Origin: a virus
Lineage: Duplodnaviria; Caudoviricetes
Direction: 5' to 3' (one strand)
DNA length: 64,000 bases
Virus record (IMG/VR): IMGVR_UViG_3300049141_000098
Coordinates: 160,001 to 224,000 of that record
Position numbers and translations under genes: made by a program. The notes under the pieces are model-generated. The model was not told where the DNA came from. It did no database searches and worked only from the letters and a program-made list of their open reading frames with translations. Below, one piece after another: positions 24,813-47,392 of the stretch (within the stretch, counting starts at the first letter, position 1; the number at the start of each line of letters is the position of its first letter).

Positions 24813-24850
24813 GCACTGGAGAACAGGGTTCACCCTGTTCTCCCGAACGC
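24813..24850 (-). repeat. Hairpin element A1
   Basis: GCACT-GGAGAACAGGG-TTCA-CCCTGTTCTCC-CGAACGC (plus strand). Confidence 0.85.
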
Positions 24851-24861
24851 ACCGGCAGGGG

Positions 24862-25833
24862 TCAGCGACCCTCGCGCCGGGCCTTGTCGACCTCCTTGAC
24901 GGCCTTCTTCCGCAGCGGCTCGATCACCGCATCGATCTCCCCCTGCGTCGGCTCCGCGCCGATCGCCAGACCGCTCTCCTTCCAGGCCACCGCGCGGGCA
25001 AGGTGTTGGATGTTGCGCTCATGAGCGCCGTCCTCATCACCCCAGGCGTACTGATACCAGCACTCCTGCTTCAGCTCCGTACGAGCCGTGCGCAGCGTCT
25101 TGATGACGGACCCGGTCTGCTGGCCGTCACGGTTCACCTCCTCCCGCAGGGGAGTGCCGTCGGGCAGGGTGATGACTCCGGCCGCCGCCTTGGCCTTCTT
25201 CTCTTCCCGCTTGACGCGCTCCGCCTCTCGCTGCTCGGCCCGCTTCTCCTCTTCGGGTGTGAGCAGTGTCGACTCTCCCGCCTTCAGCCCCTTGGCTACG
25301 GGGGCCGAGGGATAGCACACCGTGCATGCCCGATCCTTGATCAGGTCGACGATCTCCGTCTCGCCCATCCCGGACAGTCGCCAGAATCGGTGCATCGAGG
25401 TTCGCTTACCGCCCCGGTGGCAGGTGGTGCACCGGTTGGTCTTGTGCGCGTGCCCGTCGGTGACCAGGAACGACCGGGTCCACCTGCCCCGACGCTGCCA
25501 CTCTGTCTCGAACTTGTCCTCGACCTTGGTCACTTCGTCGATCATCGCGAGGGCGTCTTCGTAATTCCGCAGGAGCACGGCCGCCGGTCCCTGGGGGCTT
25601 TCCTTGGCCTGAGCGGTCACCTTGTCGAGCGCCTCACGGAAGGGCAGGTACGCGCGGTTGCGGTAACGATCCCCGGTGGCCTGCGTCTCGATACGTTCCT
25701 CGGCGACGTACCTGCGGTGGTACGCCAGGTCCATCATCGAATCCACAGCACCCAGCAGCTCATCCACCTGGGGCGGGGTCATCCCCTGCAACTGCTCAGG
25801 CGTGGTCGCTTCGGCTTCCTTGTACGTCTTCAC
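24862..25833 (-). CDS. Conserved actinophage-type Zn-binding hypothetical protein
   Basis: WTRSFLV..GH.H....CTTC and ACTVCYPSAPV motifs; bracketed by A1/A2. Confidence 0.85.
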   Translation of the reverse strand: MKTYKEAEATTPEQLQGMTPPQVDELLGAVDSMMDLAYHRRYVAEERIETQATGDRYRNRAYLPFREALDKVTAQAKESPQGPAAVLLRNYEDALAMIDEVTKVEDKFETEWQRRGRWTRSFLVTDGHAHKTNRCTTCHRGGKRTSMHRFWRLSGMGETEIVDLIKDRACTVCYPSAPVAKGLKAGESTLLTPEEEKRAEQREAERVKREEKKAKAAAGVITLPDGTPLREEVNRDGQQTGSVIKTLRTARTELKQECWYQYAWGDEDGAHERNIQHLARAVAWKESGLAIGAEPTQGEIDAVIEPLRKKAVKEVDKARREGR

Positions 25834-25856
25834 GTTTCCCCTCTCCGATCCGATGT

Positions 25857-25895
25857 GCACTGGAGGGCGGGCCCAAGGCCCGCCCTCCCGAACGC
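25857..25895 (-). repeat. Hairpin element A2
   Basis: GCACT-GGAGGGCGGGCC-CAA-GGCCCGCCCTCC-CGAACGC. Confidence 0.85.
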
Positions 25896-25901
25896 ACCGG
25901 C

Positions 25902-26333
25902 TCAGAACCGCTCGCCGTCCCAATCGATGTCCCGCTCGCCGTTGAAGCGGCGAATGCATTTCAGGGCGTCAGCTTCGGCTTCCCGGGTCTTCTCGTCGTC
26001 GCTCCCGACGTAGGGGGCGGCATCGAGCGTCTTGTACCGGTAGTCGCACCAATTCTCCGTGTCACCGGGGTAGTTGACGTCGTCGCAGATCATGAACTCG
26101 ATCTGCATTTCGATCGTGAGCTTGCTCATGTCAAACTCGCAACCGTGAAACGTCTCGACCGAGCCATTCCGAGTCAAGATCTCGACCTCCGGCGCCATCG
26201 GATAGGCGGTCACCGTCAGTAGCCGCCCCGGCTTGTCCGTGTGCCTGAACCGAATGTGCGCAGCCTTCCCGACCTGAAGCGGGGAGTAGTCACCGTTGTC
26301 TGTCCAGGGCGCCGCGTGCAGTACCCAGCCCAT
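25902..26333 (-). CDS. Hypothetical protein, distant paralog of 26354-26890
   Basis: WVL, RFR..D.P, I.WDG shared. Confidence 0.75.
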   Translation of the reverse strand: MGWVLHAAPWTDNGDYSPLQVGKAAHIRFRHTDKPGRLLTVTAYPMAPEVEILTRNGSVETFHGCEFDMSKLTIEMQIEFMICDDVNYPGDTENWCDYRYKTLDAAPYVGSDDEKTREAEADALKCIRRFNGERDIDWDGERF

Positions 26334-26353
26334 CCCGTCCCTCTTTCCGTTCC

Positions 26354-26890
26354 TCAGTCGTTCGGCCGCGTGCGGCCGTCCCAGACCAGGTACTTGTTGA
26401 TGTTGGTCACCTGATCCTGAAGCCATCGTCTGGCGTGTTCGGTGGCCAGCCGGACCTCCTCCGGGAGCCCCTCCACCCTGTATCCGAGGTCGCTCCCGAC
26501 CCAGGCGTACGTGACCACCTCGTCGCTGGAGTCGTAGACGTCGCCGTCCATCCGGCCGTCCATCCGGTACGAGTACTGCGCCTCTACGTCCACCGTTCCC
26601 GGCTTCCAGGAGCAGGTCAGGTGCTCCTCCGGCATCGGGGCGAACCAAGCCGCAAGGCTATCGCCGTAGCGCTCGACAACCTCCGTCATGTGCGGGCACT
26701 CCGGATCCGGCTCCTGTACGTCCATGTACGTCTTCGCCGTGGCGTAGACGTTGATCTCGAACCGGGCCTCCGGGCAGTCGTCGCTGCGGAAGCGAGCCGA
26801 GATTGCAGGACCAATCTGGATGTCACCCCCGACGTCTCCAGCGTCCTCCATGACCGGTCCGTCGAGAACCCAGTCGGCAGCCTTCTGCAT
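26354..26890 (-). CDS. Hypothetical protein
   Basis: ORF track; SD. Confidence 0.8.
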   Translation of the reverse strand: MQKAADWVLDGPVMEDAGDVGGDIQIGPAISARFRSDDCPEARFEINVYATAKTYMDVQEPDPECPHMTEVVERYGDSLAAWFAPMPEEHLTCSWKPGTVDVEAQYSYRMDGRMDGDVYDSSDEVVTYAWVGSDLGYRVEGLPEEVRLATEHARRWLQDQVTNINKYLVWDGRTRPND

Positions 26891-26910
26891 GATCTTCTCC
26901 CTTCCGTCCT

Positions 26911-27264
26911 TCAGTCTGCGTGCAGGGTGAGAACGTACGTGAAGTACGGACTTGCGCCCACGCCCTTCGGCCAGCCCTCTGCTGCCGGTGTGCGGGCGAC
27001 GTAGTTCTCCTTGAACTCCCGACCCAGCAGGGTCAGCTCCTCATCCACACCGCCATCCTTCGCCCGGTCGACCCACTCGAAGGGACCCTCTTCCCACACG
27101 ATGGCGAACGGGTAGGTGGGGGTCTCGACCACCTCGCCGTTCCGGTAGACGAACGGCTTCCAGTTCTCCACCAGCTTCGGCTCCGGCTCACCGGCGTCGA
27201 TGTAGACCTTGAACTGTTGCTTGATGCAGGCCAGGGCCTGCTCCGCCTGCTCCCTCGTGATCAC
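26911..27264 (-). CDS. Hypothetical protein
   Basis: ORF track. Confidence 0.75.
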   Translation of the reverse strand: MITREQAEQALACIKQQFKVYIDAGEPEPKLVENWKPFVYRNGEVVETPTYPFAIVWEEGPFEWVDRAKDGGVDEELTLLGREFKENYVARTPAAEGWPKGVGASPYFTYVLTLHAD

Positions 27265-27740
27265 AAGCTTCGCATCCTCTCCCCATTGAACCGCTTGCCG
27301 CGCCCCGCCTTACCATCCGGAATGACCTCGTACCAGCCGTCGAAGTACTCGCCGCCGGGGCGCATCATTCCGTCATCCATGAACTGACCCGGCTCGACGA
27401 TGCCCGTCCGGCGGTCGTAGTCCAGGACTTCCAGGTTCGGCACGATCGGCTTGCGATCCGAGGTGAAATCAGCCTTCAAGATCCGGTAACGCATGTCAGC
27501 CTCGGGGACGTGATGGATGGCGCCGACCCGGCAGCCAGCCATGAAGTAGGCGAGTCGGGTCGCCTCCATCGCCTGCATCCCGCGCTTCCACAGGTCGTGC
27601 TCGATGGCCTCAGTGGCGCCGATGACCTCACCGAATACGTTGCCGAAAGTCCGGAGGTCTCCGTCAAACTTCTTACCGAGACTCTTGATCGTCGTCGCAT
27701 CATCACCCTGCTGCGAGATCACGACGTACCGCTCGGGCAT
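27261..27740 (-). CDS. Hypothetical protein
   Basis: ATG 27740. Confidence 0.75.
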   Translation of the reverse strand: MPERYVVISQQGDDATTIKSLGKKFDGDLRTFGNVFGEVIGATEAIEHDLWKRGMQAMEATRLAYFMAGCRVGAIHHVPEADMRYRILKADFTSDRKPIVPNLEVLDYDRRTGIVEPGQFMDDGMMRPGGEYFDGWYEVIPDGKAGRGKRFNGERMRSL

Positions 27741-27914
27741 GTCACCCCTCCTCCCGAAGGGGCGGCCGGTCACTCCAGCCGCCCCAAGCGCCGTGTCAGA
27801 TGTTGTGCTTCCGGCGGATCTCGTCAGCCTGCTTGCCCAGATCCTCGCTCTTCGGGTCGGCCGCCAGCAGCAAGTCCCTCACCGTTCCATCTCCTTTCCG
27901 TATCGCCCCTCGCA

Positions 27915-27970
27915 GGCGACACTCCCGGGCGCCCGGCGCGAACCGGGCACCCTAGGGCGCCTCCCGTCAG
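27915..27970 (-). repeat. Hairpin element B1
   Basis: GGCGACACTCCC-GGGCGCCCGG..CCGGGCACCC-TAGGGCGCCTCCCGTCAG. Confidence 0.85.
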
Positions 27971-28209
27971 AGGACAGTCACCCAGCGGTGGCACGTGATG
28001 AGCACGTGGTCGTAGTCGCCGGAGGTTGCCTCGGTCTGGAAGGCGTCACCCTCCTTCTCAGCCTTCGTGCGGTCCCAGCCCTCTACGTCGATGAGGTGCC
28101 GGATCAGGCCCTTCCGGACCTTCCGGAAGATCGCAACAGCGTTGCCGTCGACCCCCGTCAGTTCCACCTCACACTCGGGGTACTTCACACCCGTCTGGTT
28201 GTCGCTCAC
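27967..28209 (-). CDS. Conserved small phage hypothetical protein
   Basis: VELTG.DGNA.AI..KV...L and SGDYDHVL pattern; bracketed by B1/B2. Confidence 0.8.
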   Translation of the reverse strand: MSDNQTGVKYPECEVELTGVDGNAVAIFRKVRKGLIRHLIDVEGWDRTKAEKEGDAFQTEATSGDYDHVLITCHRWVTVL

Positions 28210-28238
28210 GTTTCTCCCCTCTCCGTATCGCCCCTGAT

Positions 28239-28294
28239 GGCGACACTCCCGGACCGTCGACCGGAGTCGACGACCCTAGGGCGCCTCCCGTCAG
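28239..28294 (-). repeat. Hairpin element B2
   Basis: GGCGACACTCCCGG-ACCGTCGAC CGGA GTCGACGA-CCCTAGGGCGCCTCCCGTCAG. Confidence 0.85.
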
Positions 28295-28629
28295 GTCTGC
28301 GAGCCCTCCCGGATCACGTCGGCGATGAAGTCGCCCAGCTCCGCCTTGTCCTGCGGCAGCTCGCCGTCCGGCGACAGCTTCTTCAGCAGCTCCACGACCA
28401 GGTGCGCAGCCTGATCCCGTCGCAGCGCCACGGCCTGACCAGATCTCCCGTAGGGGCCGGGGTAAGGGAATGAGAACTTCCCGTGTCCGCACAGACCATC
28501 CAGGACGATGTCGAACTCCTCCACCAGCCGAGCAGCCCGCTCGTTGTGCTTGCTGCGCAGGGTCTCGGCGTACTCGGCTGCCGTGGCAACCTGCACACGC
28601 CCCTCTCTCATTCCTTCACTGGTCAGCAC
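28291..28629 (-). CDS. Hypothetical protein
   Basis: GTG 28629 after SD. Confidence 0.7.
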   Translation of the reverse strand: MLTSEGMREGRVQVATAAEYAETLRSKHNERAARLVEEFDIVLDGLCGHGKFSFPYPGPYGRSGQAVALRRDQAAHLVVELLKKLSPDGELPQDKAELGDFIADVIREGSQT

Positions 28630-28654
28630 TCTCTTCCCCTCTCCGTAAGGATTC

Positions 28655-29206
28655 TCAGTCGGTCCCGAACACCTCAGGGCGCTCAACTTTCCACTGGATC
28701 CAGACCTTGTCCGGATGCTCGGTGCCGACGTGATGCACCAGATCCATCACCTGGTCCAGACGCAGCGGACCGGGCGCCTTGGCGTACTCGTACGGAGTGC
28801 CTCGACTGGAGGGCGGACCAGGGACGAAGGTGTGGCCAGACGTCCAGGATGACTTGCCGTAACCCCAGTCGCCAGGCCCGAACTTGATGAACACCGTGGC
28901 GCTGTTGCAATCGACGTCCAGCGGCCTGGCATCCAGTTTGGTCATGTCGTATCCGTGCACGGTCTGCCAGTAGTGCCTGTGATAGGCGATGAACGAGACC
29001 AGTTGCTGCACCTCGTGATCGGTGGGTCGTTCCGCAGAGGCGAACGGCCATGGCGGATCCCATTGCTCGCCGGTGTCGGCGAGGGTTCCGAGAAAGGCGC
29101 CCGTGTAGTGCCACGTGGGCCTGAAAGATGTCACCACCGGGATGCGCAGGGCGGTGAGGGGGTCGTGTTCGAGAGCGTCCGTCCCGAATGGCCAGTTGCT
29201 CGTCAT
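28655..29206 (-). CDS. Hypothetical protein
   Basis: ORF track; CGGAAAGGGAG SD. Confidence 0.8.
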   Translation of the reverse strand: MTSNWPFGTDALEHDPLTALRIPVVTSFRPTWHYTGAFLGTLADTGEQWDPPWPFASAERPTDHEVQQLVSFIAYHRHYWQTVHGYDMTKLDARPLDVDCNSATVFIKFGPGDWGYGKSSWTSGHTFVPGPPSSRGTPYEYAKAPGPLRLDQVMDLVHHVGTEHPDKVWIQWKVERPEVFGTD

Positions 29207-29221
29207 CCTTCTCCCTTTCCG

Positions 29222-29566
29222 TCAGACCTTCGGACCGGCGAAGATCGAGAGCCCCTGTGGCGTTCCGCCTGCACCGCAGATGCCGCAGAACCCGCCGCGA
29301 TGCGCATGCGGAATCAGCTCCGGAGCCTTCTCCAGAAACTCCTCCCGAACCCATCGGAGCGGGTGGTCACCCATCTTGAACAGCTCGTAGGCGGCCGAGT
29401 ACACCCCGTCGATGCCGACCAGGTCGTAACCCCGGACGTACCCTTCCAGGAACGGGAGCCTGGAACCCGCTTCCGGATTCGACGACGTGTCAATCCGCAC
29501 GTAGTCGCCGTCCTGGTACTTCAGCGGATTGCCGTTCGGGTCCCGCCAGACCTCACGCTCACTCAC
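29222..29566 (-). CDS. Hypothetical SH3-like protein
   Basis: YQDGDYVRI...WVREEFLE pattern. Confidence 0.7.
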   Translation of the reverse strand: MSEREVWRDPNGNPLKYQDGDYVRIDTSSNPEAGSRLPFLEGYVRGYDLVGIDGVYSAAYELFKMGDHPLRWVREEFLEKAPELIPHAHRGGFCGICGAGGTPQGLSIFAGPKV

Positions 29567-29672
29567 TCGTCCCCGCCTCCGCTTGGTGATCCCTGCGATT
29601 CCGTTGTGGACACTCCTGACCCTTGATCAGGAGCTTCTTGCAGTACCGGCATCGCTCGAAGTACTTGCTCAC
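29559..29672 (-). CDS. 37-aa Cys hypothetical protein
   Basis: CRYC..C; coupled. Confidence 0.5.
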   Translation of the reverse strand: MSKYFERCRYCKKLLIKGQECPQRNRRDHQAEAGTSE

Positions 29673-29685
29673 CGACTCACCCCGT

Positions 29686-30105
29686 TCAGATCTGCCGTGT
29701 GTGCGCCGAGTTGGCGGGCAGACAAGCCGGAGTGTTCCGGTCCCACGTGAAGCATCCGTCGCAGTACGCGTCTTCGGCATCGGCGTAAGCGTGGTCATCC
29801 GGCAGTACGAGACGACCACATCCGCCCTCGCAGGGGCAGATATGAGGGGCGTTTTCCACTGCGTCGACGCGGAAATGCAGCCCCGTCCCCGTTTCCACCG
29901 ACTCTTTGCCGAGGCCCTTGCTCATGACCTGCTCGGCGTATCGGTTGGCGACCTCCGGGTGCATCCACCCATCACGGTTCCGCAGTGCCCAGTACGCGAG
30001 CGTGAACAGCCTCCCCCTGGGGAGCGGTTCGGACACCGTGGCCTTGCCGTACTTCGCCTCCCCCTCGGGGGGCTGAATGATAGACAGGACGAAACCCGCT
30101 CCCAT
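29686..30105 (-). CDS. Hypothetical protein with C-terminal Cys cluster
   Basis: ORF track. Confidence 0.7.
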   Translation of the reverse strand: MGAGFVLSIIQPPEGEAKYGKATVSEPLPRGRLFTLAYWALRNRDGWMHPEVANRYAEQVMSKGLGKESVETGTGLHFRVDAVENAPHICPCEGGCGRLVLPDDHAYADAEDAYCDGCFTWDRNTPACLPANSAHTRQI

Positions 30106-30120
30106 CGCCTTCTCCCTTCC

Positions 30121-30462
30121 CTACTGGTCCTTGATGCCGTTCAGTGCGGCGCGAGCGACGGCGGGGGGAATGTGCGCCCCCACCAGAGCGCCGTACGCCC
30201 ACAGCCACGGGTCCTGATTGACGTCGAGCACGCCGTCCATCACTCGCTGCTCCAGGTAGAAGTAGTTGAGATCGCCATACGTCCCGAGGCCCCCAGCCTC
30301 GAAGAATCCGTCCAGCAGCGTCTCCGCGTACTCCCGGAACGACTCCGCCCCCGTCTTCCAGTCGGCGGCGACCAGCTCCCGGGCCTTGTCCATGAATCCG
30401 GGGGTCTTCGTCAGCTCATCGAAGAGCACGTCCCCGAGATACCGCTGCACCCTTCCGTTCAC
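30121..30462 (-). CDS. Hypothetical protein
   Basis: GTG 30462 after CGGAAAGGAG. Confidence 0.75.
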   Translation of the reverse strand: MNGRVQRYLGDVLFDELTKTPGFMDKARELVAADWKTGAESFREYAETLLDGFFEAGGLGTYGDLNYFYLEQRVMDGVLDVNQDPWLWAYGALVGAHIPPAVARAALNGIKDQ

Positions 30463-30482
30463 CCTCTTCTCCTTTCCGTGAC

Positions 30483-30785
30483 CTACTTGAAAGCCTGGTA
30501 GGCGTGCCCTCGCGCGAACCGGCCGTCGGCGGGCCATCCGTCGTACTTGGCGGCCACGAACCGAGGCTCTTCGAGGTTTCGCGCCACCGCCCATTCTTCT
30601 GCGGCCTGCCTTGCCAGCCGGGCGGTGAGGCTGAGCCTCTCGGCAGGCGACAAGGCATCCGAGGGGCCTTCCACCTCAATCCAAACCGCTTCCCAGGCTC
30701 TTGTATCGTCCCGTGTCACCGTGGGCTGATCGTCCTCCAGCCTCACGGCCCAGCCTTCCGGGATCTCTACTCGATCAGATGTCAC
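30483..30785 (-). CDS. Hypothetical protein
   Basis: ORF track. Confidence 0.7.
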   Translation of the reverse strand: MTSDRVEIPEGWAVRLEDDQPTVTRDDTRAWEAVWIEVEGPSDALSPAERLSLTARLARQAAEEWAVARNLEEPRFVAAKYDGWPADGRFARGHAYQAFK

Positions 30786-30812
30786 GCTTGCTCCAGCCTC
30801 TTCTGATTGACC

Positions 30813-30870
30813 GGCGACACTCCCGGACCCCCGGCGCGTGGCCGGTGGCCCTAGGGCGCCTCCCGCTCAG
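30813..30870 (-). repeat. Hairpin element B3
   Basis: GGCGACACTCCCGG-ACCCCCGGC..GCCGGTGG-CCCTAGGGCGCCTCCCGCTCAG. Confidence 0.8.
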
Positions 30871-31250
30871 GAGTTGAAGATGGTCCCCCAGTATTCCTTC
30901 ATGGGGGCCGCATCCTTCAGGTCGATATGCGGCCCCTGCCGAGGCTCCGGGTCCGGACCTTCCTGGTCGTGCGTGCAGCCGACGTACTCGTCCCCATACT
31001 TCAGGCCGTGCCGAATGAACGTTCCGCACGTGGCGCAGAACTCACACGAGTCGGACTCGCCGAGGATGACGACCTCTACCGTGGTGTCGTCCCCGAGGTC
31101 CAGTTCTCCCGGGTCGTTGCTGTCGAGTCCGGCCAGCACTTTCGACGGGACGCCGATGCTCTCCAGGACGACCGTCGCACAGTGCTCGTCACCGCACAGT
31201 GCGTACGCCGTGTTGGTGTATCCAGCGTGCGTGATCAGCACCTCGTACAC
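30867..31250 (-). CDS. Hypothetical Cys-rich acidic protein
   Basis: ORF track. Confidence 0.75.
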   Translation of the reverse strand: MYEVLITHAGYTNTAYALCGDEHCATVVLESIGVPSKVLAGLDSNDPGELDLGDDTTVEVVILGESDSCEFCATCGTFIRHGLKYGDEYVGCTHDQEGPDPEPRQGPHIDLKDAAPMKEYWGTIFNS

Positions 31251-31272
31251 AGCTTCTCCTCTCCGGTCCCGG

Positions 31273-31719: not shown

Positions 31720-31765
31720 CCGTTCTCCCCTTTCCATGTCACCACTCGCGACATCCGCGTGCGGC

Positions 31766-32137: not shown

Positions 32138-32140
32138 AAA

Positions 32141-32308: not shown

Positions 32309-32341
32309 CGTTCCCGTTCTCCATTCCGTGTCCGGCGTGCA

Positions 32342-32376
32342 CGTCAGTGGCCGATCCCGGAGGACCGGCCACTGAC
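32342..32376 (-). terminator. Intergenic hairpin
   Basis: GTCAGTGGCCG/CGGCCACTGAC inverted repeat. Confidence 0.55.
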
Positions 32377-32385
32377 GAACTCGTC

Positions 32386-32395
32386 GGCCTAGGCC
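32386..32395. promoter_or_regulatory. Palindrome C7 GGCCTAGGCC
   Basis: Intergenic; preceded by TACCTT on minus strand. Confidence 0.75.
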
Positions 32396-32449
32396 AAGGT
32401 ATCAGACCTTGGTTGCTTGTTCGTGACCCTTGACCGAACTGTGTTCTGG

Positions 32450-35173: not shown

Positions 35174-35389
35174 TTAATCCCGAGGGATCTTGCCCCGGTC
35201 GTCCCAGATCTCCAGCACCCGGTGCCAGGGGATCAACACCTCCGAGGCGGCGCCAGTCGGAATGATGATGCCCCGGGCGGACTCCTCCCACTTTGAAGCC
35301 GTCTCCCGTTGATCCGCCTTGCTCAAGAACGTGATCGACTTCACGCTCACCTCCGTCGGTACGACACGGACGCGCACGACTCTCGTCAT
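35174..35389 (-). CDS. Hypothetical protein
   Basis: ORF track. Confidence 0.7.
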   Translation of the reverse strand: MTRVVRVRVVPTEVSVKSITFLSKADQRETASKWEESARGIIIPTGAASEVLIPWHRVLEIWDDRGKIPRD

Positions 35390-35413
35390 GCACGCCCGAA
35401 CCGCACGGCCCGG

Positions 35414-36082
35414 TCAGCCCCTGCTGTTCTCGTACTCTTCGACCAGTCCCTCGGCCGCCTCCCGTACGTCCTTCGAATCGACCGCGCTCGGATGCGGGTG
35501 GGCACCTTCGACCCGCAGGTTGTCCAGTCCGGGTGCTTCGAAGGTGATGCTCCGCCAGCCGTGACGCACGGCGTCCGGGTCCACGATGTCGTGCAGGCCC
35601 ACCCCGTACGAGAACGTGACGTCATCCGTGCGCAGCAGCTCGACGCGGATCTCATAGTGCCGGTGGTCGTGGCAGGGGATGACCACCTCCCGGTGCTCCC
35701 GGTGGTCGTAGTCGACCTTGCAGCCGCCGACACCCTCAGCGCACGCCACGTAGTCCCGGACCAGGGACAGCTCCCCAGCATCCCAGAGCAGCGTCCACCC
35801 GGCGGGCAGCAGCTCCTCCATGTGATCCGAAGCCCGGTCCGAGAGGCCTCCCTGTCCGACGATCACCTCCGCCATGTTTTCCTCGGCGTCAGTTCCGTCG
35901 CCGCAGCCGCCGGACGTCCCCTTGTACCACTCCAGGGCGGCGCGCTCGTCGGCATCCATTGTGAAGCCGTGCGACTCGGCGATCTCGATGATCCGGTAGG
36001 TGTTCGTCCAGCCGTGGCACCCGTCCAGCCACGTTCCCGTACCGACTTCGGAGCCGTTCGTGAGCGTGATTGTGTCCTGCAT
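35414..36082 (-). CDS. Hypothetical acidic protein
   Basis: WLDG..GW..Y.II.IAE..G pattern. Confidence 0.8.
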   Translation of the reverse strand: MQDTITLTNGSEVGTGTWLDGCHGWTNTYRIIEIAESHGFTMDADERAALEWYKGTSGGCGDGTDAEENMAEVIVGQGGLSDRASDHMEELLPAGWTLLWDAGELSLVRDYVACAEGVGGCKVDYDHREHREVVIPCHDHRHYEIRVELLRTDDVTFSYGVGLHDIVDPDAVRHGWRSITFEAPGLDNLRVEGAHPHPSAVDSKDVREAAEGLVEEYENSRG

Positions 36083-36776: not shown

Positions 36777-36827
36777 TCAGCCTTCTCCCTTCCGTCCCCA
36801 TTCGTCCCGTTCATGCTGATCAGGAAC

Positions 36828-36870
36828 ACACTGGAAGATTCCGAATTCGCTCCGGAATCTTCCCGAACGT
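36828..36870 (-). repeat. Hairpin element A3
   Basis: ACACT-GGAAGATTCCG..CGGAATCTTCC-CGAACGT. Confidence 0.85.
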
Positions 36871-36887
36871 TCCCGTCCGGCTGGCCG

Positions 36888-37400: not shown

Positions 37401-37451
37401 CCCCTTCTCCCTTCCGTCCGCATTCGCGGTAATTCGCACCCGATCGGAGAT

Positions 37452-37502
37452 GCACTGGAAGATTCGGAACCGGATTGGAAGGCTCCGAATCTTCCCGAAC
37501 GT
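37452..37502 (-). repeat. Hairpin element A4
   Basis: GCACT-GGAAGATTCGGA..TCCGAATCTTCC-CGAACGT. Confidence 0.85.
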
Positions 37503-37519
37503 CACCGATCAGACCTGTG

Positions 37520-38579: not shown

Positions 38580-38618
38580 GATCGTTTCATTCCCTTTCCA
38601 TTTGTCCGCGCCATACAG

Positions 38619-38656
38619 GCACTGGAAAGCGCGACCGTGTCGCGCCCTCCCGAACC
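38619..38656 (-). repeat. Hairpin element A5
   Basis: GCACT-GGAAAGCGCGAC CGT GTCGCGCCCTCC-CGAACC. Confidence 0.8.
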
Positions 38657-38668
38657 GGCATGCCCCGG

Positions 38669-38959
38669 TCAGTCCTCGTTTTCGTTGTCGTAGACGACCG
38701 GTAGCCGATCCCATGCCAGTCTGAGCATGTTCTCCAGGTCAACCACGATCGACCGCTTCCCGTACGTCCCCGCCCAGTCGGCGTCACTGTGCGCTTTGCC
38801 GAGCGTCATAGCGAACGACACCCCGTGTCCGTACTCCGGACCGTCGCCGTGCACTCCCGTCGAGAGGATCATGTATCGCTGATCCTCCGACTCGTAGTTG
38901 AGCGCGTCGTTCACCGACTCACTCAGCGTGACGTAGTCGCCCAGCACCTTGCTGCTCAT
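38669..38959 (-). CDS. Hypothetical protein
   Basis: ORF track. Confidence 0.75.
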   Translation of the reverse strand: MSSKVLGDYVTLSESVNDALNYESEDQRYMILSTGVHGDGPEYGHGVSFAMTLGKAHSDADWAGTYGKRSIVVDLENMLRLAWDRLPVVYDNENED

Positions 38960-40027: not shown

Positions 40028-40063
40028 GCTTCTCCCCTTTCCGTCCGTCTTCAGGGTTGTCCG

Positions 40064-40806: not shown

Positions 40807-40822
40807 CCGCTTCTCCCTTCCG

Positions 40823-41314
40823 TCAGTCCCGAGTGTTGCGCAGCGCCATCAGTGCCGCTTGATCGTCCCGGCAGGCATGTACGGTCAGCTCACTGACTCC
40901 GACGTACTTCGCGAGGATGATGCACGCCCGCAGGTACTCCGCCGAGACGTCCGCCATCGGCCGCCCGCCCGCCGTGGTGTCGTCTGGCCCGTACCCCTGG
41001 TTTCGGGCGAACTCGGCCGCCCCATAGGCGCTCATCACCTGAGAGATCAGTTCGACCTCAAAGCGATCCCGTTCCCGGCCATCCCCCTGGCCCTTCTGCA
41101 CGGCCTTCCAGGCCCCCAAAACCCTTCCGTAGTGGCTGGACGCCTCGATGGCCACGTAACGCATGGGGTTGCCCAACGGAAGGCGCCCCCGCAGATCCCC
41201 CTCCGTCTCCGACATGGTCTGCGTCGTGACCCGCAACCACTGGTCGAACCCGTCCGCCTCCCGACCTCCCAGGGGGTTGCGCTTCCGGTCCGGCGTCTCC
41301 GTGAACAGCGCCAT
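40823..41314 (-). CDS. Hypothetical protein
   Basis: ORF track; SD. Confidence 0.75.
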   Translation of the reverse strand: MALFTETPDRKRNPLGGREADGFDQWLRVTTQTMSETEGDLRGRLPLGNPMRYVAIEASSHYGRVLGAWKAVQKGQGDGRERDRFEVELISQVMSAYGAAEFARNQGYGPDDTTAGGRPMADVSAEYLRACIILAKYVGVSELTVHACRDDQAALMALRNTRD

Positions 41315-41352
41315 GTTCGGTTCCTCTCCCTTTCCGTCTTCCGTGATCCCGC

Positions 41353-41736
41353 TCAGTGCTGCGGCTGACCGATCTCAGGCAACGGCCGCTCCCGGGGGAC
41401 TTCCCGGCCTTCCCGGCTGTAGCACTCGGCCACCCATTCCCGGACCGCGCGCATCTCCTCTGAGCCGACCCGCCAGGTCGGTTCGTCGCCCCACAGGGGG
41501 GTGGTTCCCGTCGGATCCGGCCCGTCCATGAACGTCGCGGCCGTCCAGTCCGTGACGAACTGGCCGACGACCGTAAACGGCGTTCCCGTTTCGGGGTGCC
41601 GGGCGGTGAATCGGTGGCGCAGGTCGAACCACAGAACACGTCCCGCCTTGTCCCTCTGGTGGTCCTCCGCCTCCGTGTCCAGCACCACCAGGAACGGAAC
41701 TCCCGTGACCCCGGCCGTCGTCCTCATGTGCAGCAT
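41353..41736 (-). CDS. Hypothetical protein
   Basis: ORF track. Confidence 0.75.
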   Translation of the reverse strand: MLHMRTTAGVTGVPFLVVLDTEAEDHQRDKAGRVLWFDLRHRFTARHPETGTPFTVVGQFVTDWTAATFMDGPDPTGTTPLWGDEPTWRVGSEEMRAVREWVAECYSREGREVPRERPLPEIGQPQH

Positions 41737-41830
41737 CCCGTTTCCCCTTCCCGTCGTTCCCGGCGAACCGCCGTGATCACAGAGGAGCGCGGAGTGGTCC
41801 CCGCGCTCCCCTGAAACCGGACGCTCCCCG

Positions 41831-42439
41831 TCAGACTGTCGGCCGATTGTTCGTGATCAGATCGATCATGGGATGATCGGCGTACTTGCCGGGTTCGGTG
41901 GCGAACGCCATCATCACGTCCTCCCCCTTCCGGTCGTTTACGATCCGGCGGAACTCCGCCAGGCTCACGCCCGTGTATGCCCGCGCGAACTGCACCGTGA
42001 CTTCGTGATCCAGTTCGATGCGCGCGACCGTCTCCGGCTTCCCGGTACTCCGGGCCATCGGGAACATCTCGGCCGTCCACATGATCTCGCGGGCGAGGCT
42101 GCACTCCCAGTGCCGTACCGAATCGTCGTAGAACTTGGCCTCCCCGTTCGCGTCACACCGGTTGAACCGGGACCGCCTGGAGAGCAGGGAGAGGAACCTG
42201 TCGCGATCGACCCCGTCCGCCCAGAACGCCTCCCACGTGGGCCGGATCCCGCGCACCGCCGCGCCGTTCGCGTAGCCGCTGGCCAGATGGGCGAACCGTC
42301 GCCACACCGTCACCGCGTTCTGTGATTCCTGGTTCAGGTAGCCCGGCTGTCCCGGCCCGGGGCGCCCGTCGTGCTTGCGCTTCGCGCTGGTCAGGTGGTC
42401 GGCCAGCAGCCCGTGAAATTCCGCCAGAGTACGTCCCAT
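41831..42439 (-). CDS. Hypothetical protein
   Basis: ATG 42439. Confidence 0.75.
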   Translation of the reverse strand: MGRTLAEFHGLLADHLTSAKRKHDGRPGPGQPGYLNQESQNAVTVWRRFAHLASGYANGAAVRGIRPTWEAFWADGVDRDRFLSLLSRRSRFNRCDANGEAKFYDDSVRHWECSLAREIMWTAEMFPMARSTGKPETVARIELDHEVTVQFARAYTGVSLAEFRRIVNDRKGEDVMMAFATEPGKYADHPMIDLITNNRPTV

Positions 42440-42461
42440 GGTCCCGTTTCTCCCTTTCCGA

Positions 42462-42761
42462 TTACGCCACCAGACCCGCGCGAATCGGGTCCGGCTCCCA
42501 GGTTTTTGTCTGTCCGTCATGGTGCGTGTACGTGACCGTGACGGACTCCACCCGCAACACCGTGTACCGGCCGGTCGAATCGGTCCGGTACGTGGTCGCG
42601 ACTTCCAGCTCAGTCCCGTTGCTCAGGTTGTTGCGCAGCCTCCCGGCCAGCAGGTCAGCGATGTTGTCGTCCGTCGCGAACCGCAGTGCGACGTACTCAC
42701 CCCACCCGCACTCATTACAGCGGCAGTCCCAAGGGTCGACTGCGATCAGTCGCACACTCAC
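42462..42761 (-). CDS. Hypothetical protein
   Basis: DPWDCRCNECGWGEY motif. Confidence 0.7.
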   Translation of the reverse strand: MSVRLIAVDPWDCRCNECGWGEYVALRFATDDNIADLLAGRLRNNLSNGTELEVATTYRTDSTGRYTVLRVESVTVTYTHHDGQTKTWEPDPIRAGLVA

Positions 42762-42778
42762 GATCCCGCCCTTCCGCG

Positions 42779-42997
42779 CTACTCGCGAAGCCCGCAGGCC
42801 CGCTTGAATTCCACGGCGTTGAAGGCCCTGTTGCGCTCCGTGAACAACCGGACGAACCGGTCGGCGACACCGTCAAGGGCGTCCATCGCTTCTCGGATGT
42901 ACATGCCTTCCACGGGGCCGTCGCTCAGCTCCCAAGGGTGTTGTTCGAGTTCTGCCCGAATCTCCCGGGCGACGTCCTCCGGCGTCAGTCCGTCCAT
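42779..42997 (-). CDS. Hypothetical protein
   Basis: A..F...F...N..FN...F..ACG pattern. Confidence 0.7.
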   Translation of the reverse strand: MDGLTPEDVAREIRAELEQHPWELSDGPVEGMYIREAMDALDGVADRFVRLFTERNRAFNAVEFKRACGLRE

Positions 42998-42999
42998 GG

Positions 43000-43413
43000 T
43001 CAGATCCCGTTGCTCTCGCGCTTGCCGTACGTGCCGACCAGGCCGATGGACAAGCGACACCCGCCGCATGTCACCCCGGCCAGAGCCGTACCCGACTCCC
43101 ACACAGCCAGATCCCGCCCCTGCGAGTCGGCGCAGACTCCGCGCGGAGCCTCCCCGTCCTCCTTGGGCAGCACCAGCGCGTGACGCCTGCCGTCCGTGTC
43201 CTGGCCGACGTGATGGATGCGGACCGTCGGTGCGTAGATGAACAGCGTGCCGCCGGTCTCGTAGTGCCTCCCACCGTTCGTATCGAACCAGAACGGCCGC
43301 CCTTCCGGGCTTGCCGACAGCGTGTCCAGCACGACCGCGCCACCGTCACTCGGCTTCAGGCTCCCGCGCGTGATCTCACCGATCTCGACGCGAACGGCTC
43401 CCATGCGTTCCAT
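43000..43413 (-). CDS. Hypothetical protein
   Basis: ATG 43413. Confidence 0.7.
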   Translation of the reverse strand: MERMGAVRVEIGEITRGSLKPSDGGAVVLDTLSASPEGRPFWFDTNGGRHYETGGTLFIYAPTVRIHHVGQDTDGRRHALVLPKEDGEAPRGVCADSQGRDLAVWESGTALAGVTCGGCRLSIGLVGTYGKRESNGI

Positions 43414-43421
43414 AGCGCTCC

Positions 43422-43721
43422 TCACTGACCCTTGACGGGGTTCGTCAGGGCCAGGTCCATCCCGTCGCCTGCTGCGGCGGACAGAACGACGTGCCGGGTG
43501 TCGTCGTGCATCCTGCCGTCTGTGTCGAGCAGACCGTAGCCGGACAGCACGCTCCCCAGGTTGCCGAACGGCAGGTGGCTGGGGTTGCGCGCGATCTGCA
43601 CCGCCTCGAACAGTGCCAGGGGGTGTGCGTCCCGCACGACCTGAAGGGTCATCAGGGTTGTGCGCACGGTCGGCTCCGCAACGCTGCTGCCATCCTTCAG
43701 TTCCAGCATTTCCATAGTCAT
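43422..43721 (-). CDS. Hypothetical protein
   Basis: ORF track. Confidence 0.75.
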   Translation of the reverse strand: MTMEMLELKDGSSVAEPTVRTTLMTLQVVRDAHPLALFEAVQIARNPSHLPFGNLGSVLSGYGLLDTDGRMHDDTRHVVLSAAAGDGMDLALTNPVKGQ

Positions 43722-43909
43722 TCCTCCCGCTCTGCAACCGCTTCGACCGTGGCCGTGATCATCACCTCGTACACGTCCACCGGCAGAGCCAGCCAGCGGG
43801 AATCCCCAGTCGGCCCCTCCGCCTTGACCCGGACCGTTTCGACCGGCCCTCCAGCCCCCTCCTTGAGCGCCCTACGCAACTCCCGCTCGACGTACTCTGC
43901 GTTCGTCAT
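43718..43909 (-). CDS. Hypothetical protein
   Basis: ATG 43909; VKAEGPTGDSRWL. Confidence 0.7.
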   Translation of the reverse strand: MTNAEYVERELRRALKEGAGGPVETVRVKAEGPTGDSRWLALPVDVYEVMITATVEAVAEREE

Positions 43910-43925
43910 GATCTGCCTCTCTCCC

Positions 43926-44105
43926 TTACTTCTTTCCGAGCAGGCCCGCGCGGTAGCCCTCGCGCCAGGCATCAGCGACCGCACCGCCTTGGTAGGCAAG
44001 CGGGATCTCCGGCGCCCCCGACCCTGGGTTTTCTCGCTTCCAGCGGCCCCACTTGCGACCGTTCGCCCGCGCGTCCTCAATGAGGCTGCGCCTCTGTTCG
44101 GGCAT
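43926..44105 (-). CDS. Small hypothetical protein
   Basis: ATG 44105; AWREGY tail. Confidence 0.65.
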   Translation of the reverse strand: MPEQRRSLIEDARANGRKWGRWKRENPGSGAPEIPLAYQGGAVADAWREGYRAGLLGKK

Positions 44106-44126
44106 TTTCCTCTCCCATCCGGTAAT

Positions 44127-44170
44127 GCACTGGAACGCTCCGGTCACCCTTCCGGAGCGTTCCCGAACGT
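44127..44170 (-). repeat. Hairpin element A6
   Basis: GCACT-GGAACGCTCCGG..CCGGAGCGTTCC-CGAACGT. Confidence 0.85.
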
Positions 44171-44180
44171 CACGGGATGA

Positions 44181-44513
44181 TCAGACGTACGGAGTCTCCC
44201 GGTACTCCGCGAGCGCTTCCCGGATACGGTTCTGGCAGCCGGACGTGGACGGGGTGTACTTGACGTCCGGCACCACCCAGCCACCGTCCCGGCTGTCGAT
44301 CCAGGCGACCGGCGTCCCGTAGTGGTAGACGACGTGCGAGGCGTGCTCGATGTCCTTCCGCCACTCTTCGGGCAGACGGTTCGGGTCACCGGTCGGGCTG
44401 GCTCCGAGCTGTGCGGCCCCGCGCGGGAGCCTCCCGTCCGATCCGCCGCGCCCCATGTTGATCACGTGCTGGAGTTCCTGCCACGTTCCGGTACCGATCG
44501 TCATTCCGAACAT
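44181..44513 (-). CDS. Conserved phage-type hypothetical protein
   Basis: VVYHYGTPVAW..W.VP..KY..STS..Q pattern. Confidence 0.8.
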   Translation of the reverse strand: MFGMTIGTGTWQELQHVINMGRGGSDGRLPRGAAQLGASPTGDPNRLPEEWRKDIEHASHVVYHYGTPVAWIDSRDGGWVVPDVKYTPSTSGCQNRIREALAEYRETPYV

Positions 44514-45867: not shown

Positions 45868-46176
45868 TCAGCCCTGCCGGTCGCCCATGGGCGGATACGT
45901 CGCGCCCGGGGCGGGCTCCCGCTTGTGCCACGGGGTGTCGTCCCCAGTCGTCGCGCTTCCGTCTGCGAGATCCTGCGCCCGGACCGCGTAGCCGTCCCGG
46001 TACGCCCGGCACAGGATCCCGTCCGGCCCGTCGGCGTACATGAATGGCACGTCCGTCACCTCCGTGGCGAACGGCTCCCGGTAGGTTTCGCTGTAGTCGT
46101 GCGCCCGGTCGGCGTCGTCCCGTCCGTGCTCCCACGCCTCCGCCGCGTCCGCGTTCTGCGCGAACTCCGACGGCAT
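45868..46176 (-). CDS. Hypothetical protein
   Basis: ATG 46176 (GTG 46191 alternative). Confidence 0.7.
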   Translation of the reverse strand: MPSEFAQNADAAEAWEHGRDDADRAHDYSETYREPFATEVTDVPFMYADGPDGILCRAYRDGYAVRAQDLADGSATTGDDTPWHKREPAPGATYPPMGDRQG

Positions 46177-46219
46177 CCCTTTGCTGGTCACCCTGGTCCC
46201 CTTTCCGTTGTCCGTGCCG

Positions 46220-46277
46220 GGCGGCACTCCCGGGCAACCGGTCTCACGACCGGTTGCCCTAGGGCGTCTCCCGTCAG
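46220..46277 (-). repeat. Hairpin element B4
   Basis: GGCGGCACTCCC-GGGCAACCGGTC TCAC GACCGGTTGCCC-TAGGGCGTCTCCCGTCAG. Confidence 0.85.
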
Positions 46278-46456
46278 GTACAGGCCCCGTGCGTTGTACG
46301 TCCGCGCGGGACCGTCCCGGAGGGGTCGGCCAGCATCGCGCGGGGCGTGATGTTGCTTCCGAAGTACACGCCCTTCCCCCGGTAGTCGTTCGTCGCGTCA
46401 CCCCGGTCAGGGTCCTGCGCCGCCCGATGCCGCGCCATCTTCACCGTGTGCGTCAT
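46274..46456 (-). CDS. Small hypothetical protein
   Basis: ORF track; bracketed by B4/B5. Confidence 0.65.
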   Translation of the reverse strand: MTHTVKMARHRAAQDPDRGDATNDYRGKGVYFGSNITPRAMLADPSGTVPRGRTTHGACT

Positions 46457-46485
46457 GTCCCGTTTTCCCTTTCCGAATGGTGTCA

Positions 46486-46547
46486 GGCGACACCCCCGGG
46501 CGGTCGGAATGTCTCCCGGCCGCCCTAGCGCGACTCCCTGACGTCAG
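46486..46547 (-). repeat. Hairpin element B5 (divergent)
   Basis: GGCGACACCCCC-GGGCGGTCGG..CCGGCCGCCC-TAGCGCGACTCCCTGACGTCAG. Confidence 0.75.
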
Positions 46548-46894
46548 AGTGCGTTGACTTGATCCCGGTAACCGCCCGCGCAGTCGATCATTTCCGGATC
46601 GATCCGGTCCTGTTCGACGTTGAACATTCCGCGTGCCGTCTCCTCGAACGACGTACGGACCAGGGTTGCCAGGCGCCTCCGCCCGTTACCGTGATCCCGC
46701 CCCTCCCGCAGTACCGTCCACGTGTAGACGCGTCCGTCGGTCATGAGCATCACGCCACGCGCGAGACACTGATCACCGGGGCGCATCCGGAACTGGATGC
46801 TCTGCGACACCTTCCCTTCCACGTACTCACCGCGCCCGAAGCTGTAACCGTTCGGTCCGTACGGTGCTCCCTGGTCCCAGAACGCTTCCGTCAT
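46544..46894 (-). CDS. Hypothetical protein
   Basis: ORF track. Confidence 0.75.
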   Translation of the reverse strand: MTEAFWDQGAPYGPNGYSFGRGEYVEGKVSQSIQFRMRPGDQCLARGVMLMTDGRVYTWTVLREGRDHGNGRRRLATLVRTSFEETARGMFNVEQDRIDPEMIDCAGGYRDQVNAL

Positions 46895-46917
46895 ATCTCC
46901 CGCTCTCCCTTCCGTTC

Positions 46918-46927
46918 GGCCTAGGCC
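46918..46927. promoter_or_regulatory. Palindrome C9 GGCCTAGGCC
   Basis: Intergenic; 6 nt downstream of TAGCAT on minus strand. Confidence 0.75.
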
Positions 46928-46936
46928 ACGAGGATG

Positions 46937-47278
46937 CTACCGCATCCGCCCGACGCCCGCGAAGGTTCCGTCAGCGACCGTCCGACGCAGCCACGCATCC
47001 CGCAGGGTCTCCAGGGTGCCGAGATCCCCGTAGCTGTGCTCGATCCCGTCCGCCGAGATCAGCGTGACCTGAGCGGCGAAAACGGACACCCACTCAATGG
47101 CCACGCACGTGATACGCCGACCGGCATACCGGTAGCCCGACACGCGGATCGCCGCGCCGTTGATCTTCCGGGTCGGCAGCCCTCCCATGATCCGGAGCTG
47201 TCCGACCCCGTCGTTCGCAACGGCCCCCGTCCCGGATTCCGTCGCGTGATCGCTGGGCTTGTCCATCGTGACACCCAT
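46937..47278 (-). CDS. Hypothetical protein
   Basis: ORF track. Confidence 0.65.
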   Translation of the reverse strand: MGVTMDKPSDHATESGTGAVANDGVGQLRIMGGLPTRKINGAAIRVSGYRYAGRRITCVAIEWVSVFAAQVTLISADGIEHSYGDLGTLETLRDAWLRRTVADGTFAGVGRMR

Positions 47279-47392
47279 GTCCGTTCTTCCCTTCCCGAAC
47301 TCCCCTGCGAACGCCTTTGCGTCCGTCGCGGCAAGCAGGCTGGAGCGCCCTTCGGCTCACCCCCGAAGGGCGCTCCCGTCCACCGGCCCCGA

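Follow-up and report, generated by a model that had tools for sequence, protein, structure and literature searches.

Copies of the hairpin between phage genes

A short nucleotide block recurs between genes of a giant Streptomyces soil phage, each time on a hairpin with a variable stem, which raises the question of what this repeated element does. The window analysed here is a stretch of 64,000 nt (positions 160,001 to 224,000 of the IMG/VR record IMGVR_UViG_3300049141_000098). On its transcribed strand we found six exact copies of the motif GUUCGGGA-hairpin-UCCAGUG, against 0.01 expected by chance from shuffled sequences, and there was no further exact match elsewhere in the 259,646-bp genome. 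Written on the plus strand, the copies have the form CACTGGA-N(20–33)-TCCCGAAC and lie at 24814, 25858, 36829, 37453, 38620 and 44128. Each lies within a gap of 66–119 nt in a minus-strand gene array, with the upstream stop codon 8–19 nt before it and the next start codon 18–52 nt after it. Taken together, all copies are located between cistrons of co-oriented genes, in gaps of 66–141 nt. An earlier, sequence-only reading had placed six copies at these positions, in each case after a stop codon and ahead of the following ribosome-binding site, and this was confirmed.

Copy 1 (24800..24862, minus strand, as are all members described here) is located downstream of a 323-aa gene and consists of a lower stem, the UUCG/AGUG core, an 11-bp upper stem and a 4-nt loop. 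It scored 47.4 bits with covariance model R1 and 59.0 bits with model R2, and its minimum free energy (MFE) is −32.2 kcal/mol. Copy 2 (25844..25907) lies upstream of the 323-aa gene. In copy 3 (36815..36882; R2, 40.7 bits) the closing pair is G·U, and the lower stem GGGAAC/GUUCC lacks the C·A mismatch. Copy 4 (37439..37514; R2, 62.9 bits) has a 15-bp upper stem and a 9-nt loop. The remaining exact copies are copy 5 (38606..38669; R1, 76.3 bits) and copy 6 (44114..44182; R2, 57.1 bits), which follows the first gene of a unit starting near an operator palindrome at 44576.

The covariance models revealed two copies missed by the earlier reading, one clear (32326..32394; R2, 52.7 bits) and one weak (35352..35414; 24.3 and 31.2 bits with the covariance models). 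Both have a GUUCG/CGUG core. The clear variant, with G-C instead of G·A, begins immediately after a GGCCTAGGCC operator palindrome; the weak one has a G·U closing pair. Among the degenerate copies previously suspected near 34328, 41784 and 47335, only the last belongs here, as a related hairpin (47337..47383) that is below model detection. Its subfamily core GACG/AGCC (G-C, A·C, C-G, G·A), beside GGA/UCC, is also found in the BM-phage copies L127:8956, L126:12629 and L128:12288. The other two, GC hairpins whose flanks partly resemble those of the family, escape detection by the models. The same arm contains many other intergenic hairpins without the UUCG/AGUG core. Searches of Pfam and PHROGs with ten proteins flanking the hairpins gave no function and no known families, and a single-protein search found no relatives of the 323-aa gene in viral contigs.

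A conserved core within an imperfect helix

All 12 exact copies from this phage and its relatives adopt a common fold (−32 to −47 kcal/mol), and the MFE folds of all copies contain 19–31 pairs, with a mismatch block between an upper and a lower helix. Including GGA/UCC, the upper stem has 11–15 bp and the loops have 3–9 nt, compared with the 11–12 bp and 3–15 nt proposed before. The lower stem is real and covaries, as had been claimed. The UUCG/AG(UG) part, previously taken as an internal loop, is indeed conserved but is better described as a near-continuous helix of G-C, U·G, U·U, C-G and G·A. The complete invariant block reads G-C / U·G / U·U / C-G / G·A / GGA-UCC, and the whole element is an imperfect helix of about 25–30 bp, at the base of which the 5′ edge of the following ribosome-binding site pairs with the stop-codon region. 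Some weaker members (32326, 35352 and L147/L148) carry a Watson–Crick pair in place of G·A, showing that the full 4×4 block is not obligatory.

No match to a named RNA family was found in Rfam 15 at gathering thresholds, and a permissive Rfam search returned only a 28-bit match to a miRNA precursor, on both strands. The consensus nucleotides of the core do not fit kink-turns, sarcin-ricin/loop E motifs or T-loops. We also considered a split promoter, for which the spacer is too variable (20 to 33 nt), and a MITE-like element, which is at odds with a conserved part that is central rather than terminal and with the lack of target duplications.

Selection on the RNA structure and distribution of the family

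In an alignment fitted to the covariance model, 96.0% of cells were paired, compared with 72.7% after shuffling and 33–45% after sliding, and 18 of 19 pairs varied on both sides. The covariation score of this fitted alignment was 0.634 (shuffled: 0.199), a value reached by none of 500 shuffles. The central C-G of the core was invariant in 42 of 42 sequences. A count at six orthologous sites, made independently of the model alignment, gave 31 changed pairs, of which 23 still pair, seven of them through double compensation. In the four complete genomes, all 28 matches map to the same small-gene arm, always on its transcribed strand. For 27 of 27 members the sense fold is more stable than the antisense fold, and G·U pairs make up 15% of the pairs across members (101/678). 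We conclude that the hairpin structure is under selection. The sequence-only reading had named a lack of covariation across homologues as part of what would speak against a recognition element; covariation is present and, together with the strand bias, the sense-strand folding and the conservation within a phage group, supports the proposal of a repeated recognition element acting as single-stranded RNA.

The search of actinophage genomes suggested by that reading showed that the family is conserved across cluster BM phages. With the covariance model we found about seven copies each in the cluster BM Streptomyces phages Frankenweenie, Satis and Kela, and 13 further copies in large uncultivated viral contigs; among the sequences searched, the family is restricted to BM-like phages. 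Hairpins upstream of the counterpart of the 323-aa gene in Frankenweenie and Kela are orthologous to copy 2. A 251-kb contig carries a hairpin at the site syntenic to copy 2 although it lacks the 323-aa gene; here the flanks are 100% identical, and the stem differs by three compensated changes from G-C to A-U. The orthologue of copy 3 has an A-U closing pair and one change from A-U to G-C. One upper stem in Kela resembles a non-orthologous Frankenweenie copy.

Exact flank matches in unrelated viral contigs and bacterial genomes served as a control. Their stems had 0–5 bp, compared with 7–12 bp for the variable stem in all copies of the phage family. None of the 120 bacterial flank matches listed (from at least 120) had a stem of at least 6 bp, and none had the hairpin. 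A loose flank scan of viral contigs, used as a control only, yielded nearly exclusively chance matches without stems. In 101 Streptomyces genomes, the family was not found in the phage orientation with model R2 (best 50 candidates per genome scored, a cut-off that weak copies could escape). Five weak R2 matches in these genomes were perfect GC palindromes that scored on both strands and lacked the core.

Likeness to the host rpsO-pnp hairpin

In Streptomyces, the intergenic rpsO-pnp hairpin, located just upstream of pnp (PMC5872136), is a substrate of RNase III (AbsB) in the autoregulation of PNPase (Chang et al. 2005 and Gatewood et al. 2011, as summarised in PMC10126417 and PMC5872136). The S. 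coelicolor enzyme is reported to cut this hairpin at both sides of a [4/4] internal loop, the 5′ side being the primary site (PMC10126417). In the conserved host hairpin at this locus, AGUG on the 5′ arm lies opposite UUCG on the 3′ arm, and the other irregularities are only 1×1 mismatches. As AGUG/UUCG is the only multi-nucleotide internal loop there, we infer that it is the cleaved [4/4] loop, whose published description is given without sequence; SCO5737/5736 is absent from the supplement of PMC4681348. An exact match to the host motif, in a single copy, occurs in 93 of 101 Streptomyces genomes, and a reversed control gave no matches.

The phage core UUCG/AGUG consists of the same two tetranucleotides in flipped orientation. 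The a priori chance of finding them in a 4×4 loop in either orientation is 2 in 65,536, with one host substrate compared at loop level. In both hairpins AGUG and UUCG face each other (A·G, G-C, U·U, G·U), about 10 or more base pairs lie on either side of the block, a 1×1 pyrimidine mismatch is found 1–2 bp from its G·U side, the apical stem is variable and covaries, and the location is intergenic. They differ in the arm that carries AGUG (5′ in the host, 3′ in the phage), in the pairs flanking the block and in number and place: host genomes contain a single copy, located in the pnp leader, whereas the phage has about seven between unrelated small genes. Model R2 misses the host hairpin in the 101 genomes, and as far as can be told there is no homology by descent. 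The resemblance of the cores is one of mimicry or convergence, not of membership in the pnp-leader element. A crude look at the 16S leader-trailer pairing of one Streptomyces genome, for which the long-duplex prediction was unreliable, showed no evident AGUG/UUCG loop; this loop may not be a universal RNase III mark in the genus.

Proposed processing by host RNase III

With slightly better than even confidence, we propose that the phage hairpins are putative processing and stability signals for host RNase III, following a T7-like logic. Their most likely predicted role is that of cut-and-protect signals for long phage transcripts. A processing site comparable to those of T7 was among the options raised before, and the core shared with the host 4/4 loop lends it independent support. 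The hairpins would act in cis in long leftward transcripts of the small-gene, early-type arm. Such transcripts are plausible because a 20-kb scan of the minus strand (24000–43999) detected neither a sigma-70 consensus promoter nor a U-tailed terminator. The invariant block would be recognized by RNase III (AbsB), the double-strand-specific endonuclease of the host, since it reproduces the 4/4 loop found in the rpsO-pnp hairpin. No RNase III gene was found in the four phages, whereas control genomes gave matches, so the enzyme would be that of the host. We assume that it accepts a loop flipped relative to the apical loop, given the two-fold symmetry of the enzyme and of double-stranded RNA. The primary cut in the host substrate is reported on the AGUG arm. 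With AGUG on the 3′ arm of the phage hairpins, the main cut would leave the upstream message ending in the complete hairpin, a cap that would shield it from 3′ exonucleases; the new 5′ end of the downstream message would lie 18–52 nt ahead of the start codon, and the ribosome-binding site would be released.

RNase III signals of the T7 early and late transcripts include R0.3, R0.5, R1, R1.1 and R1.3. Like these, the phage hairpins are intercistronic within long polycistronic transcripts, are present in several copies per genome and are two-helix hairpins of two to three turns with a conserved internal loop between the helices. The predicted main cut on the 3′ arm, the hairpin-capped upstream message and the predicted dependence on a host enzyme also agree. 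Unlike the T7 signals, they occur in phages of a high-GC actinobacterium, and their symmetric 4×4 block of mostly non-canonical pairs, for which cleavage is predicted, takes the place of an open, asymmetric loop. There is no sequence relation between the two, and Rfam 15 gave no sequence or profile similarity to described sites.

Alternative explanations

An invariant mismatch block on freely varying helices is also the usual appearance of a protein recognition site, and the block could bind a sequence-specific RNA-binding protein other than RNase III, phage-encoded or a host factor such as PNPase, which would control downstream translation, mRNA stability or antitermination. The restriction of the family to BM-like phages, with no copy detected by model R2 in 101 Streptomyces genomes, fits this explanation, and pairing of the stop-codon region with the edge of the ribosome-binding site would suit translational control. 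However, no candidate protein emerged, and the flanking genes lack known families. That the core matches a substrate of host RNase III would be a coincidence unless the binder were a host factor of the rpsO-pnp hairpin, and seven dispersed intra-operon sites per genome are unlike antitermination sites of the nut or put type. We regard such a protein site as possible but on the unlikely side. Hairpin terminators without a U-tail have been described for actinobacteria and phage phiC31, and strong GC hairpins directly after stop codons, in an arm rich in other hairpins lacking the core, could be factor-independent terminators of this type or plain 3′-end stabilizers whose core is a by-product of common descent. 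Yet common descent leaves unexplained why core and flanks are 100% identical beside a stem with compensated changes, and the mismatches weaken the hairpin, which does not suit a terminator. Every copy is followed by CAU/CAC... rather than a U-tract, whereas classical U-tailed terminators are present at 3574 and 8434 in the window; the minus strand between 24000 and 43999 has no terminator-like site. We consider a terminator or plain stabilizer distinctly improbable. Stems and loops that vary by up to 13 nt argue against the fixed geometry of N4-type hairpin promoters; PF00940 (single-subunit RNA polymerase) had no match in the four phages, with the control genomes silent as well.

The hairpins could also act as DNA, as boundaries at which gene-plus-hairpin units are exchanged by recombination, either as attC-like folded single strands or as short homology patches. 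In the phage studied here (G000), the 323-aa gene has a hairpin on either side; at this place the syntenic 251-kb relative carries a single hairpin followed by different genes. Several homology blocks shared by Frankenweenie, Kela and Satis have a boundary at a hairpin, a 125-bp island that surrounds a subfamily hairpin reaches 96% identity between genes that do not align, and the Kela stem that resembles a non-orthologous copy would also fit. Against this, block ends near hairpins (5/22) are no more frequent than hairpin-holding intergenic gaps (6/35). A tyrosine recombinase (PF00589) was found only in G000, some 35 kb distant at 239710–240198; the three BM phages that carry the family gave no match. 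Frankenweenie has been reported to lack an integrase (PMC10652959). Integron attC sites and attC-like phage cassette sites resemble the phage hairpins in that both are imperfectly paired, lie at the 3′ ends of individual genes, have a variable middle between conserved parts and go with gene-plus-hairpin indels. In contrast to them, GTTCGGGA and TCCAGTG, the conserved halves, do not form an inverse-core pair of the RYYYAAC/GTTRRRY type (GTTCGGG does not fit GTTRRRY), three of the four phages lack an associated recombinase, and G·U-rich stems that fold better on one strand only point to RNA. The recombination site considered in the sequence-only reading is weakly supported at best, there being no recombinase common to the carriers and no enrichment of breakpoints beyond intergenic gaps. 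We consider it highly unlikely; exchange at conserved patches may be a simple side effect.

Possible implications for RNase III recognition and phage takeover

The hairpins form a newly defined RNA family, without a match in Rfam 15 or a counterpart in the literature consulted. What is new beyond this is that the phage core shares the loop of a host RNase III substrate, that is, host mimicry. About 800 transcripts bind the enzyme, and no rule for this binding is known (PMC10126417). An invariant block on varying helices, in common with the best-studied host substrate, provides a concrete and cheap hypothesis for such a determinant, and the phage family offers natural variants for testing it. 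A wider reading, which we think unlikely, is that the hairpins mimic the PNPase-autoregulation hairpin at the molecular level: the seven or so copies, carried by abundant early RNA, would be processed and would compete for RNase III, perhaps also for PNPase, loosening host control of RNA decay during takeover, and the AGUG/UUCG block, usable in either orientation, would be the first sequence determinant to be defined for actinobacterial RNase III. If processing by host RNase III is true, the T7 model of mRNA processing dependent on this enzyme would extend to large actinophages (cluster BM and relatives), and the hairpins would be a further instance in which a phage copies an autoregulatory RNA signal of its host.

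Copies of the hairpin and their genomic setting

The window covers positions 160,001–224,000 of G000, a virus record of 259,646 bp whose ends are direct terminal repeats; the G+C content is 63.6 %. The named phages closest to it belong to Streptomyces cluster BM, namely Satis, Kradal, Quantum, EhyElimayoE, Kela and Frankenweenie. These are prolate-headed lytic siphoviruses whose genomes measure 185–200 kb, and intergenic repeats are not mentioned in their genome announcements. Frankenweenie is reported to lack both an integrase (PMC10652959) and a repressor. An uncultivated 251-kb contig (L179, L194) shows synteny to the window, with a nucleotide identity of 70–80 %. In a GC3-based gene map of the window, small genes on the minus strand follow one another in a long array.

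The plus-strand pattern CACTGGA-N15-45-TCCCGAAC matched six times in the window (0.01 expected) and nowhere else in the 259,646-bp genome. These matches are the six copies located by the sequence-only reading (24813, 25857, 36828, 37452, 38619 and 44127). Their transcribed-strand sequence is GUUCGGGA-[stem-loop]-UCCAGUG. All six lie, as had been described, between a stop codon and the next ribosome-binding site, in gaps of 66–119 nt, 8–19 nt past the upstream stop codon and 18–52 nt ahead of the next start. The variable stem has 7–12 bp in every copy of the BM-like phage group; where unrelated viral contigs or bacterial genomes match the flanks exactly, it has just 0–5 bp among the matches listed.

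We built two covariance models, R1 from three copies of identical geometry and the broader R2 from 30 sense-strand copies. In the window, the models added a clear variant copy at 32326–32394 and a weak one at 35352–35414, both on the minus strand. The degenerate copies proposed near 34328, 41784 and 47335 were not detected by the models; the hairpin at 47335 belongs to a related subfamily with the core GACG/AGCC, which is present in BM phages too. R1 and R2 gave seven matches per genome in all four complete genomes (G000, Frankenweenie, Satis and Kela), and 28/28 were on the transcribed strand of the same right-arm gene array. With a more specific pattern we found 13 more stem-bearing copies, distributed over seven large uncultivated viral contigs. 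An Rfam search gave no match, so the impression that no named family was involved held. We conclude that BM-like Streptomyces phages carry a real, conserved family of RNA elements, which is without counterpart in Rfam or in the literature searched.

Other features were seen in the same gene array. An extended ribosome-binding motif similar to GACGGAAGGGAGA recurs before many arm genes in G000 and BM phages; directly 3′ of most hairpin copies there is a GACGGAAGGGAGA-like motif (e.g. window 36780–36800 and 37405–37425, and the BM-phage loci L126, L127 and L128). Just downstream of the hairpin at 44128, a 59-aa ORF (43926–44105, minus strand) matched ribosome modulation factor (PF04957) weakly and below threshold, at E 0.003 and 18 bits (cut-off 27.9). 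A second hairpin family occurs at 28210–28290 and 46060–46273 on the minus strand, with conserved flanks, CGGGAGRCGCCCUA 5′ and GGGAGUGYCGCC 3′ of a variable 11–12 bp stem. Its 3′ flank contains AGUG, apparently bulged between two short helices.

Anatomy of the fold and selection on the structure

The twelve exact copies first gathered (six from the window and six from Frankenweenie, Satis and Kela) all adopt one common fold, with energies of −32 to −47 kcal/mol. An outer lower stem begins at or just past the stop codon, and its 3′ strand stops where the next ribosome-binding site begins. It is followed in most copies by a C.A mismatch and then by a central block which, from outside to inside, consists of G-C, U.G, U.U, C-G and G.A before GGA/UCC. 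The upper stem, including GGA/UCC, totals 11–15 bp and carries an apical loop of 3–9 nt. The UUCG/AGUG block is thus conserved as claimed, but rather than an internal loop it is better described as a run of non-canonical pairs inside a near-continuous helix of 25–30 bp. In weaker members the closing G-C pair becomes A-U, C-G or G.U, and some have a Watson–Crick pair in place of G.A, with U.G, U.U and C-G kept.

Covariation of the variable stems, another part of the original description, was upheld across homologues. In an alignment of 47 matches, which was fitted to the model and is hence biased towards it, 96.0 % of cells pair, compared with 72.7 % after shuffling and 33–45 % with slid partners. 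Both sides varied in 18/19 pairs, and the covariation score was 0.634 versus 0.199; none of 500 shuffles attained 0.634. The central C-G pair was invariant in all 42 distinct sequences. Because this alignment leans towards the model, we also made simple pairwise alignments of six orthologous sites from the window and its 251-kb relative. Changes affected 31 of 154 pairs; 23 of these still pair, seven by double compensation, and eight are broken. Site 25858 has ~30 nt of flank with 100 % identity on each side, and its 9-bp variable stem differs by three compensated G-C to A-U changes.

The sense strand folds better than its complement in 27/27 members (mean −40.3 versus −32.1 kcal/mol), and 101 of their 678 pairs are G.U. 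Both results point to RNA rather than duplex DNA as the working form of the hairpins, in line with the first of the options initially offered, a repeated RNA. On the minus strand, the 20 kb around the elements held neither a sigma-70 consensus promoter nor a U-tailed terminator. Operator-like palindromes lie at 23618, 32386, 44576, 46918 and 51847; from their positions, most elements are internal to multi-gene units. The GGCCTAGGCC palindrome (32386–32395) directly adjoins the variant hairpin (32326–32394) on its 5′ side; this hairpin may therefore be located at the extreme 5′ terminus of a transcript.

Comparison with the host rpsO-pnp hairpin

The rpsO-pnp intergenic hairpin, at which S. coelicolor RNase III reportedly cuts both flanks of a [4/4] internal loop, primarily on the 5′ side (PMC10126417), lies directly upstream of pnp according to a second review (PMC5872136). 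We took rpsO-pnp spacers from Streptomyces genomes, folded them and found a conserved hairpin downstream of the rpsO terminator. From base to apex it consists of 7 bp, a C.A mismatch, 5 bp, an AGUG/UUCG block, 2 bp, a C.U mismatch, 5–7 bp and the apical loop. AGUG lies on the 5′ arm and UUCG on the 3′ arm, and together they make up its sole multi-nucleotide internal loop. An exact match to this motif plus its immediate flanks occurs once per genome in 93/101 Streptomyces genomes (reversed control, 0). The apical stem covaries among these genomes, so that the host hairpin (spacers L324–L332), too, is a conserved loop on a covarying stem.

Both tetranucleotides are identical to those of the phage core, whereas the apical loop closes the opposite end of the block, giving a flipped orientation. 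This loop-level comparison was made with a single host substrate, and the a priori chance of a match was 2 in 65,536. The phage genome has 57 hairpins with a 4×4 interruption; their most frequent core is UUCG/AGUG, which occurs on the transcribed strand only, and none of them shows the host orientation.

Possible roles of the hairpins

It is quite improbable that the hairpins are terminators only, since a U-tract is absent and an invariant core that weakens the helix would be left unexplained. Recognition of the block by some protein besides RNase III, of phage or host origin, is somewhat less doubtful, though still unlikely: R2 did not find the family in phage orientation among the best 50 candidates in each of 101 Streptomyces genomes, which favours such a protein, but the flanking genes are uninformative.

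The sequence-only reading had also offered recombination sites, and some gene arrangements fit cassette exchange at the DNA level. In G000, a 323-aa gene (24862–25833, minus strand; PHROG 15500/2433, function unknown) has hairpins downstream (24800–24862) and upstream (25844–25907). The 251-kb contig lacks the gene and its downstream hairpin and has a single hairpin followed by unrelated genes; the difference is a gene-plus-hairpin indel. The upstream hairpin is kept at the orthologs in Frankenweenie and Kela. A 125-bp island around a GACG/AGCC hairpin is 96 % identical between Frankenweenie (L126:11957–12081) and Kela (L128:10936–11060), with L127:7899–8045 as a further BM-phage locus. The genes on both sides are non-alignable, and one gene in Frankenweenie versus three in Kela separates this hairpin from the next. 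Among BM phages, the ends of homology blocks frequently coincide with hairpins; however, 5/22 block ends at hairpins compared with 6/35 gaps holding hairpins is no enrichment. Moreover, a tyrosine recombinase (PF00589; 57.6 bits, 390-aa frame) was found in G000 outside the window (G000:C1:239710–240198) and not in Frankenweenie, Satis or Kela, and the stems are RNA-like. We therefore regard recombination sites as highly improbable; exchange at conserved hairpin patches is probably a side effect.

With moderate confidence, we predict that the hairpins are most likely processing and stability signals for host RNase III that copy the loop of the rpsO-pnp hairpin. The enzyme would be the host's, because all four phages lack an RNase III gene (control positive). 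RNase III, itself a symmetric dimer, acts on pseudo-symmetric double-stranded RNA, so binding would be expected for the flipped block as well, which has ~10 or more bp to each side. If the primary cut is made on the AGUG arm, as we infer for the host, it would lie on the 3′ arm of the phage hairpin. The 3′ end of the upstream message would then still carry the complete hairpin, and the message downstream would start shortly ahead of the ribosome-binding site, freed from the lower stem. Such an RNase III-type arrangement, with a hairpin-capped upstream message and a freed downstream start, is known from T7 early mRNA. On the host side, the rpsO-pnp hairpin could be used to seed a model of actinobacterial pnp leaders as an RNA family.
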